DNA of 64,000 nucleotides from Octopus vulgaris (GCA_951406725.2 OX597828.1:19220001-19284000), one strand, 5' to 3'; positions 50,772 to 61,966 are shown, numbered from the stretch's first letter. The notes: generated by a model from the letters alone, not told the origin. Numbers and translations: made by a program.

Positions 50772-52057
50772 GTAAGTAACAACTTACTGCGATAATTTTA
50801 AAGCTTCTTCATGGACCGTGATAATTGACAAATGACTTAATCTAAACAACGGTCTTTTCTTATAATTAGTTTGTGCTCATTAGTTTTTCTATTGCTTTTA
50901 AACGTATTTTTACCCCTTTTTGAAATCTATTTCCTCGAAGTTTTTCTGTAAAAAGTTGCTAAAACATCTATATTGGACTTCGATCATCATTGACAAGTGA
51001 CATAATCAATATTTATTTTCTCTATAAATGATTTATATTCATTATTTGGGAAATGCTTTTTAATTTTTTAATTCGGACTTATTTTCCGCCCTTGTCTATG
51101 AAGATATATTTTCCACTTGAAATTATAGGATGGCGATATTGACGCCTTTAATTTCATTGCAATTCGCTTTCACTTTTATATTGACACTATTTTCTTTTTT
51201 CATCTGTAAACTGCACGTTAACCCGTTGTTTTGCCATGGGGCCAGTTGTTACCTTTCTTTTATCTTTTACTTGTTTCAGACATTTGACTGCGGTCATGCT
51301 GGAGCACTGCCTTGATGTGTTTTAGTCAAACAAATCGACCCCAGGACATATTTTTAAAACCTAGCACATATTCTATCGGTTTCTTGGTGGGGGTAAAGTG
51401 CAAGCTTTTTTTTTTTTATTTTCCATAACTTTCTTTGGATTCCTACGTTTTCGAAATCGGAGATTACGAGCGACTTTGCTTAAATAAAAATATGTTTTCA
51501 AAATTTTAATTCCCCACCACCCAATTTTTAAATTTTTCACTGATTTAAAAAAAATATTTTTTTCTGTTTAATCCTCCTGGAAACATACGGTGATTATGAA
51601 TATGGAAAAAAAAAAAGGATCCAATAATGTTTTCTTTTGACACATTCTACCAGTATACGAAGTTTCAAATTTTTTAGTTAACTAGAAAATTCCGTCCATC
51701 AAAAAGAAAAAATCCCAAAAGAATTTTTCATTTCAAATTTTCTTAGGAAACACACACACACTCTGGGCGTATATTCTGGATGTGCTTGGTGTGCAGTGCA
51801 TACCCATCGAAAATAGCAAATTCATTATAAATATTAATCTTACTTATTAATTTAATCACAAATTGTAATGGAAAACTTTTTTAATACCCCTGCTTGAAAT
51901 ATGGTAGCATTGGCTGTAGCAGCACACACAACTTGATACTGTAGCGATATCGTTACACTCATTGCTATCTTCACTGTTTGAGAAGAGTATTAAGAATAAT
52001 CTCGTTCGAGATTACAAACATCTTCGGCTAGTTTAACATTGTTGTAAACTCTAATTC

Positions 52058-52210
52058 GATTGGCTGACACGTGGTCTCTACTACGTTCGCACCGCTGGTT
52101 GTCACGTGACGCGATTTGTCTCCGCTTATTTTCGCGCCATTGTTCCAAGCAGCCAATCACAGCTTTCCATTTCTGAAGTTAGTTTTGAGCCACATAAACC
52201 TTATAAAAGA
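52058..52210 (+). promoter_or_regulatory. LTR U3 Pol II promoter-like cluster (duplicate at ~58021-58174)
   Basis: ATTGG, CACGTG, GTCACGTGAC palindrome, CCAATC, and TATAAAAG at 52202-52209. Confidence 0.6.
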
Positions 52211-52770
52211 AGTGTTCTCAGGAGGAAAATACAATGTTACTAAAACAAAGACACATTCACAAGTAGACAAACAAATGGTTTGATTAGGGTATAATCAATT
52301 TGGCGAGGAAACTAAAGAGAAAATATTACGACGATGACCACCACAGATCTACAATGGAAGAATTCACCACGTGTAGTTGAGGGTAAAAGAAATCGTTGAA
52401 CGACAGTAAGTACGTCCAAAATTTATAAAGCAGTGACATACATACATACATAGATACTTGTAGCACACATGTATATACGTGCAGAGTGAAAATAAATCAC
52501 ACTATTTAATGTGACGGACTACACTGCAAAAAAATCAAAAATTTCATTTCTGTTTACAAACTTTCTCCGTGTCTATACGCACAAATACTTTTATGTATAC
52601 ACACGCAATATTTAAGAAAAAAAGGAATATACACAAAAAAGAACGAAACATGTGTATATACACACACAATATTTAAGAACAAGGAATATACACAAAAAAG
52701 AACGAATCAAAAACAAATATTTTATATTTTACTTTTATCGTATTGTTGTTTACATTTTCTGTCTCTACGG

Positions 52771-53164
52771 ATGACCAGAACCAACAGAATCGCCATGGTG
52801 AAATCCATAGCGGCGTGCGATAAGACTGGTCGCTGCTCTAAAATAGAACACTGCCCAGAAAATCACACCTGCCACATCTGTACGGAACCCGAAAATACGT
52901 TCCGTAATCGCTGGGTCGAATGTGGGACATGTCTCATCTCTGTCTGCCTCCAATGTGCCACGGACTTTCAGAAGATCCCAGGCCCAAAAAAGAGCCATCA
53001 TAATGCTATGATGGATAGACTCTGGAAGATGGTTCAGCTTAAATCTTGGACTTTTCAGTGTCAGGCCTGCGTGCCTCCACAACCGACGATTGTGTCTCCC
53101 CCTTCCACTCCCGTGGAGGAGGCGGAACAGCAACAGCAGCAACAACAAAATCAACCACAACCAG

Positions 53165-53197
<33 letters not shown>

Positions 53198-54021
53198 TAG
53201 AGCAGCAGCAGCAGCAACAACAAAATCAACCACAACCAGAGCAGCAGCAACAACAAAATCAACCACAACCAGAGCAGCAGCAACAACAAAATCAACCACA
53301 ACCAGAGCAGCAGCAACAACAACATCAACAACAACAACAGCAACAACAAAATCAACCACAACCAGAGCAACAGCAGCAACAACAACAACACCAATTGACC
53401 AGTGCGGTTCTTGCAGAACTGCAACAATCGATCTGTGCTTTAAAAGGGGAAGTAGCAGGAATAAAAGCAACCATTCAGGTTGGACTCCACAATGAGGGGT
53501 CTTATCGGAATGCTCTGCTAAAGAACCTCCCTGTACCTGTACCTCTTGTCGCATTTAAGACCGCGGATTCTGCCACCCATGAAGTCATTGCCATTGGGGT
53601 ACAAGAAGACATGGCTGATCTTCAGGCTTTTGCTGCCAACTCAGCCAAAGACCTGGGCTGCGTTCCCCCAACGGGTGCTATCCGCCTTGGACGACCTGGC
53701 CCAAAACCTAGGCTCATCAAGTTGTCTTTTACCGACCCCACTGAGGCAACCTCTTACCATCTGGCCTCAGTTAAAGCTGGGCGGGAAAATCGGACCACCT
53801 TCCGAACACGCCCAGGCTTACCGTCCGATGTACGTCCGAAGCTACGTGTAGTGGCTTCCCTGAATAGGAACTCAGCTCTACAGGAAAGCTTCAGTCTTCG
53901 GGAAGATGGACAAATCTGGAGATTTGTCAAGACTGCTGAAACGTGGAAGAGAGATACCAGCTGGTCTGAGTGCTCTCTACCCACAATAACTAAAAAGACT
54001 ACAGCAACTCAGGGAAACTAA
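52771..54021 (+). CDS. LINE ORF1p: PHD-like Cys-rich finger, polyQ tract, coiled coil, RRM-like region
   Basis: CHIC...ECGTC..SVCLQC...FQCQAC; LAELQQSICALKGEVAGIK heptads; IAIGVQE and IRLGRPGPKPRLIKLSF motifs; ends QGN*. Confidence 0.85.
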
Positions 54022-56842
54022 GCCAGAACAACCTGCCATCCTCTACACACCATCATAAACTGCGAGCAGGGTACAAATTGTTGTCCTTAAATGCTCGCAG
54101 TTTATGCAACAAAATACATTTGTTCAACGCCTACGTCAGAAGTGTTGACCCTGACTTCATCACTGTCAAGGAAACATGGGCGCATTCCTTACTCTGTGAT
54201 GGGGTTTTCAACATTACGGGGTACAACCTCTTCCGTAAGGACCGCACTAACCGCCGTGGTGGTGGTGTGATGGTCTACGTTCGTTCAAATTTTTGGTAAT
54301 TCCTTGTGCCGATTTGAACGAATCACAAGAAGAAGTTTTTTTCTGTGACGTGCGTATGACCATGTCAACACTCCTGCTTGGCGTTGTTTATCGTCCCCCA
54401 AGTTACCATCGGGACACACAGCTTTGCAATGTCCTCCGAGCTGCTGCCAGGAAAACAGCCACTTATGTGTTTATTGCAGGCGATTTCAATCATCCTGAGA
54501 TCGATTGGGAGACCTTCCATTGGCCACAGAGTGCAAACGATTTTGTTGAGCTTGTGCTGGACTCAAACTGGTCACAAGTAGTCACCTCTCCAACAAGAGG
54601 CGACAACACCTTGGACCTGCTCTTCACCACAACTCCTGAAGCGGTTATCAATTGCACTACGGAGGAACCTCTAGGTGACTCTGATCATGCTATGATCATC
54701 GCCAATCTGGCTCTTGCGGGCAACAAAAACCTGAACCATCTCCAATCTGCTTCCTTCGATTGGAAGAGAGCAGATTGGAACCTGTACCACACTGAACTAC
54801 AGCACCCAAACTGGCGTGAATTCTACAACTCTGGAGATGTGAATACTATACTCCAGAGTATCCTGGACTCAATATGGGCAGCATGTGCAGCATCAGTGCC
54901 ACGTAAACAAAAAAAGAAGAACCGCCCCAAAAGGGCAATTTGGGAAACTTCAGCGGTCCGACTTGCCAGGAGGGAACGTCGGACTGCTGAACGGGAATAC
55001 AGGTTGCATAAATCAGACACCAACAGGAAGAAGCGGAATAAATCCTCCAACCATCTCAAGCAAGTGACAAAAAAAGCAGTGCTTGAATTTGAACAGTGCA
55101 TAGCAGCCAATCCTGACAGCAAGGTTTTCTGGAAATATGTGCACTCAAAGCAGAGACCTCACTCTCCAGTGGGCCCTCTTCGCAACCCTCACACAAACCA
55201 GATCACTGACGACCCCAAGGAATGCGCAGAACTCATTGCCGAGTACTATGCAAACATATTCACTGTTGAAAGTCAAAATGTACCATCTTCACCATCACTA
55301 ACAGCAAACTCCATAACAACTATGGAATTTACACCTGCAATGCTGCGACGTCACCTTCAAAATAAGCGCAACTATGCCTCCCCTGGTCTCGATGGAGTTA
55401 CATACCTGCTTCTCAAACGTGGCAGGCACTTCCTTTTACACCAGCTTTCTATTTTCTTCCAGTACTGTCTCAACAATGGTGCTACTCCGGAGCAGTGGAA
55501 AACTGCCAGTGTCATTCCTCTGTTCAAAAAGGGCGACCGCACATCACCTGTCAACTATCGCCCAGTCAGTCTCACTAGCTGTATTGAAAAATTGATGGAA
55601 TCGTGTGTCAGAGAAACACTCTGGAACTTCTGGAGCTCTCACAGTCTCATCCGACCCTCACAATATGGATTTGTCCCTAACTCCAGCTGCAGTGACCAGC
55701 TTGTCGAGTTCCTTGAGGACATTACTCAGATTACTGACAGTGGCTCATGGGTGGATGTTGTCTACCTTGACTTTGCTAAGGCTTTCAACTCTGTGCCACA
55801 CAAAAGGCTTATGGTGAAACTCTCTGCAATGGGTGTGGGGGATGACCTTTTTAACTGGTTGAAATCCTTCATCCTCAGCCGAAAGGAGGTAGTCACAGTT
55901 CTAGGACAGCACTCTACACCATATGAGATGTCATCGGGTGTACCACAGGGATCTGTCCTTGGTCCCCTCTTGTTTGTGGCATACATTAACGACATAGATG
56001 CCAATTTAAAGAATGCCACAGTATTGAAATATGCAGACGACATCAAGCTGTACCTTGAAATCAAGAGGACAGATCCTGATGTCTACAACTCTTTCCTGCA
56101 ATCAGACCTAGACACAATGCAGCAATGGATCACAGACTGGCAACTGAAACTGGCTGTGGACAAGTGTACCACCATGCATTTTGGGAGAAAAAACCCTGCG
56201 TTCACTTACTCCCTCCACAACACTGATATCAAGAAATCCTCTTGCGAGCGTGACCTAGGCATCACTGTCAGCAGTGATTTGCGTTGGTCAAAGCATATCT
56301 CTAAGATTGTCAGGAAGGCCGAGGGTGTCTTGGCATCACTCAGCAGGTCTTTTGTTAGCCGCTCTCCAGCCATCTATTTAAAACTGTATACAGCTATGGT
56401 ACGACCACACTTGGAATTCGCATCATCAGTTTGGAACCCCTATCTTGCACAGAACATTGACCTCCTGGAATCTGGCCAGAGACGTGCAACCAAACGCATA
56501 CCCTCCATCAGACACCTACCATATTCTGAGCGCCTTGTTTCCCTGGGCATGGATTCACTGAAGCTCCGGCGTTTGGCGACGGACTTGGTAAACACCCACA
56601 AAGTTATCAACCACCTCACCAACAACAACACTGAACACCTTTTTGATCTCCATGTGTCTAACACACGTGGACATGCCTACAAAGTCAGAAAACAATACAG
56701 CTCCCATGACTTTCGGAAACATTTTTTCACGCTCAGAGTTGCTGAAGCATGGAATAAACTGCCTGCGTCAGTTGTTGACTGCCATGACACTGCATCTTTT
56801 AAGGCCCTCATGCTTTCCGAAATCCGCCGAAACTACACCTGA
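53994..56842 (+). CDS. LINE ORF2p: APE endonuclease + reverse transcriptase, no upstream ATG, one -1 frame break at ~54290
   Basis: LNARSL, KETW, RKDR..RRGGGV, VYRPP, GDFNHP, LDLLF, SDH (APE); PGLDG, NYRPVSLTS, QYGF, YLDFAKAF, SGVPQGSVLGP, YADD (RT); frame opens after TAA 53991-53993. Confidence 0.9.
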
Positions 56843-58689
56843 TTATATATACACTTTAGATGAGTTGTAGTGCACCTGAGCACTGTACACAATTATTATT
56901 ATTATTATTATTTTAAATAGCCGTCTTAGGTTTTTAGTTCTTTTCAGAGCTAAACCTCTGACCACAGAGTTCGTCTTTGGTTTTAGTTCTTTTCAGAACT
57001 AACCTCTGACCACACAAAGTTCATCTTAGGTATTTAGTCCTTCTCAGGGCGAACCTCTGACCACAGAGTTCGTCTTTGGTTCTAGTCCTTCTCAGGGTGA
57101 ACCTCTGACCACACAGAGCATACTCGACCATGTTCCAGTTCGAAAGGCAGGCGACCACCATTAATACAAGATGTTACAGATACCTCTCATACTGTTAGTG
57201 TGAAAATATCACCACGAAAAGAACGGTTACAGGATATCTATAACTAGAGAAAAATAACCAAACAGAATATATAATGAAGACGCAGCAAAAACCAAGCGAC
57301 AGACACAACTCATCGCCAAACATCGTCTCTATCTACTAAGGTTTAATTTGTACACAAGACAACTACAGATTCAACTAAAGCGGTTAGGTGAAAATATCAC
57401 CACGGGAAAAACGGCTACAGTTGATATATCTGGAAGTACATTCATATCAAGAGAAAGCTAAAACACAACAAGTGATTCAATTAATCTCAACTACGAGACG
57501 CAACATCTTGATATGGAACGCTTACACTCCGTGTACGTCATAAACGGTAAATCAATTATCTGTTCTTGAGTTCTAGTTCTTCTAAGAACTTAGGCCACCT
57601 GCTGCTCAACTTAGAGATATGCGATTGTTACTGCTACTACCTGTTGCTAGGCTGATACCAACAACATGAACTGTGAATCAAATTCCATTGTTATTCCTCT
57701 GGTCACTATTTCTTATACTGGTGACCCCCTTTAATACGCAGCCATTCTGATATCCTGCGCGGCCAACGGTAAACATAAGTTACGGAACTGACACGAGAAC
57801 GCTGAAGAAGGAACTTTTTAAGAAAAACAAAAAAATATATATATAATAATATCAATTTTATCGCCGTTTTGTCTACAACAAAACGTCTGGCAAGAGGTTA
57901 TATGTAGCGATATCGTTACACTCATTGCTATCTTCACTGTTTGAGAAGAGTATTAAGAATAATCTCGTTCGAGATTACAAACATCTTCGGCTAGTTTAAC
58001 ATTGTTGTAAACTCTAATTCGATTGGCTGACACGTGGTCTCTACTACGTTCGCACCGCTGGTTGTCACGTGACGCGATTTGTCCTCCGCTTATTTTCGCG
58101 CCATTGTTCCAAGCAGCCAATCACAGCTTTCTATTTCTGAAGTTAGTTTTGAGCCACATAAACCTTATAAAAGAAGTGTTCTCAGACAAATATCCGTCTT
58201 AGGTTTTTAGTTCTCTTCAGAGCTAAACCTCTGACCACAGAGTTCGTCTTTGGTTTTAGTTCTTTTCAGAACTAACCTCTGACCACACAAAGTTCATCTT
58301 AGGTATTTAGTCCTTCTCAGGGCGAACCTCTGACCACAGAGTTCGTCTTTGGTTCTAGTCCTTCTCAGGGTGAACCTCTGACCACACAGAGCATACTCAA
58401 TCATGTTCCAGTTCGAAAGGCAGGCGACCACCATTAATACAAGATGTTACAGATACCTCTCATACTGTTAGTGTGAAAATATCACCACAAAAAGAACGGT
58501 TACAGGATATCTATAACTTAAGATGAATCCATTTTAGTTTCATCATGGGATAATATAGAACAAACACTAAAGACCAAAAGTACAACTTGTTGGGTAGTGT
58601 TGTAAGACACAGGAACATGTTGGAAGAGTTTTATCACAAAACTTATGGAATCCATATTCAGTGTTAGCAAAGTCAAATGTCTTCACCGA

Positions 58690-59312
58690 CATATTAAAGG
58701 TGATGGCAGCCGTTTTCCTAATGTTAGCCTCGTCCTTCTTGATGTAGTGAACAGTGGATCTGTTCACACTAAAATGGCAGCCTATGGCAGCGAAAGTTCT
58801 CCCTTCCTTCAACATATCCAGAAGTTTCACCTTCTCAGCAATCGACATCATTCTTCGTTTGCATTTAGGCTCAGTATCAGCCTTGGAAGGAGCAGCACGC
58901 TTGGGTGCCATTGCAGGGGATGAAAATGCAAAATTCAACACAAAGAAACAAAAAGAATTACACACTGCACAGCGTAAAATAGTACAGTAAACCACTCAGC
59001 GAGAAAGCCTGAAGCGAAAGGGAAGATGCTGCAGATCTGAGCGTCAGACAAAGCACCAATCACAGGCCAGATTACAAAATAGAAAGCTGCAATTCATCAT
59101 CTCTCTCCATTGCACCAATCACAGCCTGTCTTAAGTTCAAATACCCCTGTATATGCTTTTTTGCTATTTTATGCTTGTTTTGTTGTTCCTAGACTAGTAA
59201 ATAATATTTATTATTAATATTTTAATGGATTAAATGAAAAATTTTAGGTGTTCATATATATATATTTTAAAAATCTGCGATAGTTGAACTGCGTAGTAGC
59301 AAGGGATCAATG
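58690..59312 (-). mobile_element. Tigger/pogo transposon 5' fragment
   Basis: MAPKR...KRRMMSIAEKVKLLDMLKEG....IG.HF.VN.STV.YIKK CENP-B/psq HTH from ATG 58911; TIR-like TA|CATTGATCCCTTGCTACTACGCAGTTCA at 59312. Confidence 0.8.
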
Positions 59313-59666
59313 TATATAAATTTTATGTAATTGAATGGCCTGTGCCTCTCTTCACTTCACCAAACCTTTGGCAGGTCTTTGACAGATTTTACATCCTTCA
59401 ATGCATCCAGATAGCATCCTACCCACCAAGAACTCTTGGTGTTTTTGCCAGTTTAGTCGTTGACAGTTCAGATATGGTACAGACTGTACTAGGTGACATG
59501 TTACAAGTGGCAATCATGACTAATATGCCATATTTATATATGAATTTTTTTCCTATTTTGATCTTTACATGTAATTATCATCAGGATCCTCAATAATTCC
59601 ATTTTTGGGGGTTTTTTGCATTCATTTTTGTTTATTTTTTTTCTATACAGGTATTTTAAATACAAT

Positions 59667-61966
59667 ATGGATTGTTTAATGGTATTTGGAATCATCTGTG
59701 AAAATAAAACAAAGGTTTCTCTTCTCTATGCCACACATACAATTTCCATTAATGGATTTACATCACACGTCAACATCGAGGCTGAATATATAAATGAAAG
59801 CCAACACAAAACAGAAGCTAAGTTTGTTTTCCCTGTGGAAGAAGACAGTGCCGTATATAAATTCGAAGCTAAAATTGGTGATGTCCATTTAGTTGCCAAA
59901 TCTAAAGACAAAGATGTTGCCAAAAAGGAATACAAAGAAGCTGTAGATAAAGGTCAGTCTGCCATTTTGTTGCGAGAGACAAGTACATCTGGCGATATTT
60001 TTGAGTATAGTTTAGGTAATATTCCAGCAAATGAAAAGATCCATTTACAAATATGCCTTGTTTCTTAACTTTCTTGTGAAGTTGATGGGGCAGTGAAATT
60101 TCATATGCCATTTGTGCTTAATCCCAGATATGGTCTTAAACCTGCAGATGAAAATTATCAACATGCACCTAAACCAAAAGAGTTTAGTTTCAATGCCTCT
60201 GTCAACTGGAATTCACAAATCAAAGACATCAAATCAGAACATCCAGTTAGGTGGAATATCAGGATAACAAGTGTCATGCTACTGTGAGAATGGCAAAGGA
60301 ATTCAGTTTTGAGAAAGACTTTCTTCTGCAAGTGTACTATGAAGATGTAGAAAAACCACAAGTAATTTTAGAGAAAGGAGATGAGAATTCTAAAGGAATG
60401 TTTTCTAAAGATATTATGATGATAAATGTGTTTCCAGAACTTCCGCAAGTAAAACAATCTGCCGCTAATGACTATATTTTTGTTATTGATTGCTCAGGAA
60501 GCATGAGTGGAGAGAAAATTGAAGCAGCAAAAGATACCTTGTTACTTTTCTTAAAAAGTTTACCTTTGGGTTGCTCATTTAATGCTATCAGCTTCAATAA
60601 TGATTTTGAATTTCTGTTCAAAGAAGGAAGCCAAGAATATAGTGAAGATTCTCTGAATGAAGCATTGAAATTCCAGAAAAATCTATATGCTTCGGGAGGA
60701 ACAGAAATTCTTAGTGCACTGAAATCACTCTCTGACAAAAAACCATTTCAAAATTTCCATCGACAAGTATTCTTAATAACTGATGGTGAAGTCTACAGCA
60801 CAAACCATGTCATTCAATTGGTCAAGTCACAAGTAAACAACACACGATACTTCACAATTGGTATTGGTTCTGGAGCTTCTACAGAATTGGTCAAAGGTAT
60901 TGCCCGCGCAGGGAAGGGACAAGCAGAGTTTGTGATGACAAACGACAACCTTAAGGCAAAAGTTATGCGTTTATTAAAATTGTCAATGCAACCATTTGTA
61001 TCTTCGGTTTGTCTCTCTGCTAAACATGGTGAAAACAATAAAGAATTATCCTTTATTTCAGTTCCAGAAAGGCTGCCATGTATTTTCAGTGAAGAAAAAT
61101 TAATCCTTTATCTAGTTTTGCATGAAGCTGAGACTAGTTGCAAAAATGTGAAATTGAATCTTTGTGGTAAAATTGGTGAATCAGACTTTTCACTTGATTT
61201 TGAAGCAAGGTTGTTGGGACAGAATAATAAGGAAATGACAATACACCGTCTTTGTGTGAAAAGGAAAATACAGGAATTGGAATTAAATGAAGATTTGGGT
61301 AAAGGTGATGAAATAAAATCAGAGATTATCGATTTGGGTACAATGGCTAATTTAGTTTCAAAGTACACAAGTTTTGTTGCTTTGGATGAACATGTTCCAG
61401 TTGCTATTCAAACAGTCACTATGGCATTTATGTCTAAAGCCACGCGTTCTCGTAGTAAGAATGTTCCTGCAATAGTAAGAATGTTCCGTAAGTTTTACAA
61501 CAGAGTTTTACAACACTCTATGCCAATGCCAGTACGTCCGAGAGAAGATATAGCTGGAATGTATGCTTCCATAAATAATTCCTTAAGTATAAATGCTGAG
61601 AATTCAAGACAGTCACCTCACTCAGACTTAACCTCTTCAAAGGGAACAATTAAGGACATTTTAACAGGTTTGGTTGATCTACAAGCTTTCTCTGGTTTCT
61701 GGAATCTAGATGATCAATTGGCTCAAGCTCTCAATATTTCTCTTAAGGATCTGAACGATGAGAATCCATCTGTTAGTGATAAAGTATGGGCTACAGCTCT
61801 TGTTGTTGCTGTACTAAGAGAAAAATTAGCTTCCCAGCACTGTGAATGGGAATTTATTGAAAAGAAAGCAATTGTGTGGCTGGAATCTCAGAATATACAA
61901 CCACTGTATTCAGAGAAGTTACTAGAAAAAGCTACAAACTTCATAAAAAACAAAATGGTTGCCTAA
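59667..61966 (+). pseudogene. VWA5A: VWA5A-like copy 2 with nonsense codon and 1-nt deletion
   Basis: Near-identical to 42448-44724; GAA>TAA at 60066-60068; GTTAAGGTG>GTTAGGTG at ~60249; MIDAS region DRSGS>DCSGS; remaining ~570 codons open. Confidence 0.85.

Follow-up and report, generated by a model that had tools for sequence, protein, structure and literature searches.

The Window Contains a LINE Copy with Two Overlapping ORFs

The window, by which we mean the whole 64,000-nt stretch of DNA that was analyzed, harbors a LINE copy whose two ORFs overlap. Its features, numbered from the first nucleotide of the window, are:

52220 to 56914, + strand: LINE copy of the APE plus reverse transcriptase (RT) type, presumably CR1-like, 5′ truncated
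52771 to 54021, + strand: ORF1, 416 aa, from ATG 52771, with a PHD-like Cys cluster, a Gln-rich repeat, a coiled coil, an RRM and a C-terminal domain
53991 to 53993, + strand: TAA, last stop of the −1 frame used by ORF2, 6 codons upstream of the heptamer
54012 to 54018, + strand: slippery heptamer G_GGA_AAC, in phase with ORF1, candidate −1 frameshift site
54019 to 54021, + strand: ORF1 stop TAA, directly after the heptamer
54012 to 56842, + strand: ORF2 in the −1 frame, APE endonuclease and reverse transcriptase, broken near 54290 in the window copy
54060 to 54062, + strand: CTG in the ORF2 frame, ten codons upstream of the first APE motif
54270 to 54272, + strand: first ATG of ORF2, inside the endonuclease
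54290 to 54299, + strand: one-base loss private to the window copy, then a premature stop at 54297–54299
56891 to 56914, + strand: (ATT)n 3′ tail of the LINE

The element has the makeup of an APE-type non-LTR retrotransposon, with APE and RT domains in ORF2, no LTRs, a tandem tail and 5′ truncations. We call it CR1-like provisionally, from its RT motifs and the type of its ORF1. It belongs to a young, high-copy LINE family in genome G000 (424 candidates, the best 40 of the 424 at 99–100% identity) and aligns at 97.8–98.9% with all six longer copies that were fetched, three of which extend 5′ beyond the window copy with sequence in common. The window copy itself is dead: the loss of one base near 54290 ends its ORF2 at 54299. 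This base is present in 29 of 29 other copies as well as in contigs from all four sequencing runs, and in five of the six longer copies the frame runs for 943 codons from the GGG to the stop, the first Met being codon 87.

The predicted model of the last 205 residues of ORF1 matches the human L1 ORF1p structures 2ykp (E = 2e-5) and 2yko (E = 5e-5), with a whole-chain TM-score of only 0.36. By this model, the coiled coil, RRM and C-terminal domain of ORF1 resemble those of L1 ORF1p, as in the type II ORF1 of the CR1/L2 lineage. The N-terminal Cys pattern aligns with a PHD finger, a feature of subtype IIC, and two homologues (P0011 and P0032) match Pfam PHD with E about 1e-3, short of the curated threshold, whereas the N terminus encoded in the window gives no match; a PDB sequence search with these 98 N-terminal residues returned only chance matches. 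The closest named homologue is an Octopus vulgaris protein and one other is named from the annelid Capitella teleta; similar clusters in the Atlas come from eukaryotes and carry no family name. The Gln-rich repeat (53125–53394) differs in length among copies, mostly in multiples of three. Separately, a predicted protein in G000 C2 (P0008; L169–L172) combines a fragment of the LINE ORF1 family with three unrelated exons, which is either exon capture or a gene-model artifact.

At its 3′ end ORF1 reads CAG GGA AAC TAA. The layout described in the first-pass annotation was borne out in full: the heptamer is phased with ORF1 and adjoins its stop, and the −1 frame is open from 53994 into LNARS, an APE motif whose N is at 54090, with no ATG until 54270, behind two endonuclease motifs. 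Pfam Exo_endo_phos positions 2–80 fall on 53994–54296 (E = 0.0076, below the cut-off), followed downstream by Exo_endo_phos_2 (E = 8e-14) and RVT_1 (E = 1e-36), and the best PDB match of ORF2 is L1 ORF2p. A protein begun at ATG 54270 would lack Exo_endo_phos profile positions 2 to about 75 and with them LNARS and ETW, the motifs that correspond to L1 Asn14 and Glu43. No protease is found among the Pfam matches of the element. Phased canonical heptamers occur at 10 of the 1,259 codon positions of ORF1 and ORF2 in the window element; a phased heptamer in a single copy is thus weak to modest evidence, and the weight comes from conservation.

The Heptamer Is Retained across Diverged Lineages

Sister lineages B and C, found in G000 by searches with diverged proteins, are 71–75% identical in DNA to the window element, which represents lineage A. 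We collected 150 G000 loci, of which 146 were anchored on the endonuclease motif, and collapsed them to 108 distinct places of lineages A and B. The heptamer is exactly GGGAAAC at 82 of these places, carries an extra G at 14 and a point variant at 8, and is truncated or unscored at 4. Five of the point variants (GGGAAAT at four places, GGGAAAA at one) still fit X_XXY_YYZ and another is G_GAA_AAC; the remaining two are synonymous G_GGG_AAC, a change that spoils the site and counts against frameshifting. In lineage C, three of the four copies reaching the site have the exact heptamer. That 30 of 30 young-family loci retain it was given no weight, since loci at 99% identity carry no information on conservation.

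A metagenome scan was made with an ORF1 pattern from which the heptamer site was excluded. It gave four matches, two of them by chance and two from true LINEs (L091 and L092), and both LINEs carry the exact heptamer. The same pattern had no matches in viral contigs, and its two matches in prokaryote genomes were both dismissed as chance. The L091 junction reads CAG GGA AAC TAG, such that the stop adjoins the heptamer as it does in the G000 lineages; the L092 junction reads ACG GGA AAC, after which ORF1 continues for 16 more codons. The L092 endonuclease is only 26–31% identical to those of the other lineages.

Eight representatives of the five lineages (A, B, C, L091 and L092), four of which are related at 54–86% APE identity, were then compared. 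The codon before GGA is CAG, CTG, TTG, ATG, GTG or ACG, encoding Q, L, M, V or T, yet its final G is constant, and just 5–15 of the 30 bases upstream of the heptamer are identical between lineages. In all eight, ORF2 is in the −1 frame, which is closed 2–14 codons upstream and open for 25–39 codons to the first motif, and the heptamer falls within the overlap, after the last −1 stop and before that of ORF1. Seven have no in-frame ATG from the last −1 stop to the first APE motif, and the remaining one, L091, carries such an ATG just two codons ahead of the motif Asn. By a rough hand estimate based on the codon usage of the window element, the chance of finding the L092 codons and frame, given Thr-Gly-Asn, is ∼0.006. 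Two of the three observations that the first-pass annotation had named as evidence against frameshifting were looked for, and neither refuted it: an ATG before the APE domain is absent from the family, and instead of drifting synonymously the heptamer is retained at the DNA level in lineages whose neighboring codons have changed. These comparisons indicate nucleotide conservation of the heptamer beyond what the protein would need.

L092 combines an ORF1 of this family with a far-diverged ORF2, and the heptamer is still present. This ORF2 looks L2-like. The slip site may travel with the ORF1 module.

Gly-Asn Is Enriched in the Tails of ORF1 Proteins

ORF1 homologues comprised 60 proteins from a cluster-representative search, 7 from a profile search and P0002; the 59 with a conserved C-terminal Trp motif were scored and the 9 without it were left out. 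Gly-Asn is present in 44 of the 59 tails, which are otherwise unconserved (5,000 shuffles: mean 5.9, maximum 15), and the reverse Asn-Gly in 11. No Gly-Asn is preceded by a residue lacking a G-ending codon, though such residues account for 20% of tail positions; the corresponding p is about 4e-5 for independent proteins, and these proteins are related rather than independent. The dipeptide is found 3–33 residues past the last conserved Trp and 0–19 residues before the stop. Taken together, Gly-Asn, Lys-Asn, Glu-Asn or Gly-Lys occurs in 57 of the 59 tails (shuffles: mean 16.9, maximum 30). Indeed, 13 of the 15 tails without Gly-Asn hold one of the other three pairs, which fit A_AAA_AAC, G_GAA_AAC and G_GGA_AAR, respectively, with codons deduced from the protein. 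The earlier suggestion that Gly-Asn ends reflect a slippery site thus holds for the ORF1 family of the window, while the notion that Gly-Asn stands next to the stop as a general rule fails on the variable distance.

Two tails may be mentioned individually. That of P0068 (Capitella teleta) lacks Gly-Asn and has Ser-Gly-Phe, which would fit G_GGU_UUU; that of P0007 has Glu-Asn-Phe, which would fit A_AAU_UUY.

No Conserved Structure Is Found at the Usual Distance Downstream

Two potential structures follow the heptamer in the window:

54032 to 54070, + strand: CCTGC/GCAGG stem
54054 to 54106, + strand: hairpin of 15 perfect base pairs that begins 35 nt downstream of the heptamer (z = −5.2), lineage A only

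In representatives of A, B, L091 and L092, no hairpin or pseudoknot is conserved 5–9 nt behind the heptamer. The site thus lacks a conserved stimulatory structure at the usual distance, one defining feature of textbook −1 sites, and this is the main gap in the case for frameshifting. In A, B and L092 the first 45 nt after the heptamer show no structure; only L091 has a stem, of 6–8 bp and 11–13 nt downstream of the heptamer (z = −3.2). In a crude pseudoknot scan, one of six representatives scored above all its shuffles.

Several candidates were considered and rejected. Both arms of the weak CCTGC/GCAGG stem noted in the first-pass annotation exist (54032–54036 and 54066–54070), but the 60-nt fold is no better than its shuffles (z = 0.14) and the stem is missing from the lineage-A and lineage-B consensus folds. 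Of 58 loci, counted without deduplication, 53 have the 15-bp hairpin perfectly paired. It does not form in lineage B or L091, and at 35 nt it lies too far away for a standard stimulator, besides being confined to lineage A. Pairing with the 3′ end of the element, considered for A and B, is matched or surpassed by 25–88% of the element's 30-nt windows. Our best guess is that the ORF1 stop codon adjoining the heptamer acts as the stimulator in the G000 lineages. As a separate observation, the 15-bp repeat, which lies in the coding start of ORF2, has a mismatch in older lineage-A copies and none in the youngest subfamily.

Copies with an Extra G Derive from a Single Insertion

Where the heptamer has gained a G, at 14 places in G000 (L104, L109, L111, L113–L118 and L120–L124), ORF1 and ORF2 are in one frame. 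All 14 have the same 5′ junction, 54 codons upstream and inside a different type of LINE, and lack the ORF1 start. The RT motifs of the host LINE look RTE-like. The six copies that were fetched (L163–L168) all have a common 3′ flank and 6–10 kb of sequence in common. The common 5′ break and 3′ flank show that the 14 places represent one event, and they provide no evidence on whether a fusion works. We thus discarded these copies as a hard-wired natural fusion; they are one 5′-truncated lineage-B insertion carried as cargo, in a unit of 6–10 kb or more that has spread over many contigs and occupies at least 14 places. A weak search for a natural in-frame ORF1–ORF2 fusion protein of 722–2,060 aa found none among 7,992 candidates.

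ORF2 Is Probably Translated by −1 Frameshifting

We consider it likely that a programmed −1 frameshift at G_GGA_AAC gives rise to an ORF1–ORF2 fusion. ORF2 has no start codon and is reached by moving one base back from a conserved heptamer, so ribosomes likely slip there. A minority of ribosomes would slip back one base on G_GGA_AAC and read on into ORF2, making a fusion of about 1,350 residues, and most would stop after the heptamer and yield the ORF1 protein. The slip would thereby set a fixed, low ratio of ORF2 to ORF1. Because no protease is encoded, the fusion would stay uncleaved and might, more speculatively, tether the endonuclease–reverse transcriptase to the ORF1 coat via the coiled coil. 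We would put at about even the chances of the wider proposal that −1 frameshifting is the normal route to the enzyme in a large part of the CR1/L2 group, with an ORF1 family that carries the slip site in its tail across many animals, ORF2s both CR1-like and L2-like, an uncleaved Gag-Pol-like fusion and no standard downstream structure.

Ribosomes could instead terminate at the ORF1 stop and restart at a non-AUG codon, probably CTG 54060, to make a separate ORF2 protein, as has been proposed for mammalian L1, and we give this a small but real chance. Lineages A, B and C all have a CTG or TTG at the place equivalent to 54060, and starting there would keep the endonuclease whole; the distance from CTG 54060 to the first motif is about that from the L1 start to its first motif, which favors restart. 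However, L091 and L092 have no CTG or TTG at the equivalent place, and elsewhere the codon may persist merely as leucine. There is precedent in L1, whose ORF2 accepts any sense codon in place of its ATG (passages in PMC1965478 and PMC5009743), and in SART1, where restart is helped by downstream structure (passage in PMC3708506), such as the strong hairpin present here in lineage A. Nevertheless, restart leaves the heptamer, the constant −1 frame and the open stretch from the heptamer to the CTG unexplained. In addition, ORF1 in many homologues continues for up to 19 codons beyond Gly-Asn, which argues that Gly-Asn is not a termination signal.

It is quite improbable that Gly-Asn serves the ORF1 tail as a protein motif, for binding, cleavage or turnover, with the heptamer as a by-product. 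Gly-Asn is strongly enriched in the protein, and the 59 homologues were scored as protein. Yet its distance varies both to the folded domain (3–33) and to the C terminus (0–19), its replacements by Lys-Asn, Glu-Asn and Gly-Lys fit slippery sites, GGA AAC follows a G in all five lineages for which there is DNA, and ORF2 would still be without a start. Least credible is a fusion made at the RNA level, through splicing or through a polymerase that slips and adds a base in the G/A run: one lineage of genomic copies with an extra G attests that such insertions occur, but it is the single truncated insertion copied as cargo, and the G and A runs are just three bases long. The contigs of all four sequencing runs span the junction with no joint or insertion at 53990–54100, a weak argument, as these runs are presumed to be RNA and contigs drop rare variants.

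Comparison with Known Recoding Systems

The legend of a review (PMC5911963) states that ORF2 of the Dictyostelium elements TRE5-A and TRE3-A needs a −1 frameshift; a −1 shift had thus already been stated for non-LTR elements, which the first-pass annotation did not mention. TRE5-A and TRE3-A are, like the window LINE, APE-type non-LTR elements with two overlapping ORFs (the overlap is also given in a passage of PMC5633606). In contrast to the window LINE, they inhabit another host kingdom, have an unrelated ORF1 and carry a zinc finger in ORF2, and the passages on them in PMC5911963 and PMC5633606 give neither a slippery site nor an assay. The frameshifting proposed at the window junction would be an established recoding mechanism, put forward earlier for one distant family of non-LTR elements, and it has comparative support here across an invertebrate ORF1 family.

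In the retroviral and Ty3/gypsy gag-pol sites, as in the window LINE, a phased X_XXY_YYZ ends the structural gene and the enzyme gene lies in the −1 frame without a start. The window LINE differs in being a non-LTR element, with no Pfam protease and no conserved structure 5–9 nt downstream. According to the relevant section of PMC5009743, G_GGA_AAC and A_AAA_AAC are among the most shift-prone heptamers and G_GA is a tolerated first triplet; where that section turns to non-LTR elements, it mentions HeT-A, TART and L1.

Among LINEs, the closest likeness is to CR1- and L2-lineage elements with a type II ORF1 (a PHD plus a transposase-22-like coiled coil–RRM–CTD; subtype IIC in the survey text of PMC4120745), which have the same ORF1 layout (the PHD finger of the window LINE being putative), an APE plus RT ORF2 and a short tandem tail. 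The words "frameshift" and "overlap" are absent from the main text of this survey, and "frameshift" from the available text of PMC13343379 and PMC11203168. Our literature search, by titles and opening lines and mostly outside subscription journals, turned up no slippery site described for CR1/L2; CR1-type papers of the 1990s may have suggested overlap or frameshifting. Mammalian L1 and silkworm SART1 likewise have a bicistronic LINE RNA, and the ORF1p fold is common to L1 and the window LINE. However, L1 has a 63-nt spacer and an ATG and SART1 a UAAUG stop-start (passages in PMC5972666 and PMC3708506), unlike the window LINE, whose ORFs overlap and whose ORF2 has no ATG before the endonuclease. 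For Paramecium elements, +1 shifting, reinitiation or readthrough has been suggested (passage in PMC5405496). More generally, passages in PMC3894237 and PMC3708506 call LINE ORF2 translation an open question, and reinitiation, IRES and 2A are discussed for it there and in PMC5972666.

If the −1 frameshift reading is correct, a dominant group of animal retrotransposons would use a retrovirus-like strategy, and its ORF2 protein would be an ORF1 fusion. Annotations that start ORF2 at the first ATG would then remove catalytic endonuclease motifs. A slip site that works without nearby structure would be of interest to recoding specialists, and with a conserved slip site the question of how LINE ORF2 is translated could be tested with one construct.

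Sequences Flanking the LINE in the Window

The flanks of the LINE are repeated near-perfectly 1.3 kb downstream, 51940–52221 corresponding to 57903–58185 and 56915–57214 to 58188–58487. As the two flanks are copied in two adjacent downstream blocks, the LINE seems to lie inside one unit of a local tandem duplication. Farther downstream, 59562–61966 on the + strand contains a VWA5A-like gene with VIT and VWA domains; it spans two long open frames with few introns, if any, and may be a retrocopy or a gene that has been split. On the − strand, 58567–58995 contains a short frame that starts MAPKRAAPSKA and has a helix-turn-helix-like stretch, and it looks like the N terminus of a Tigger/pogo transposase.
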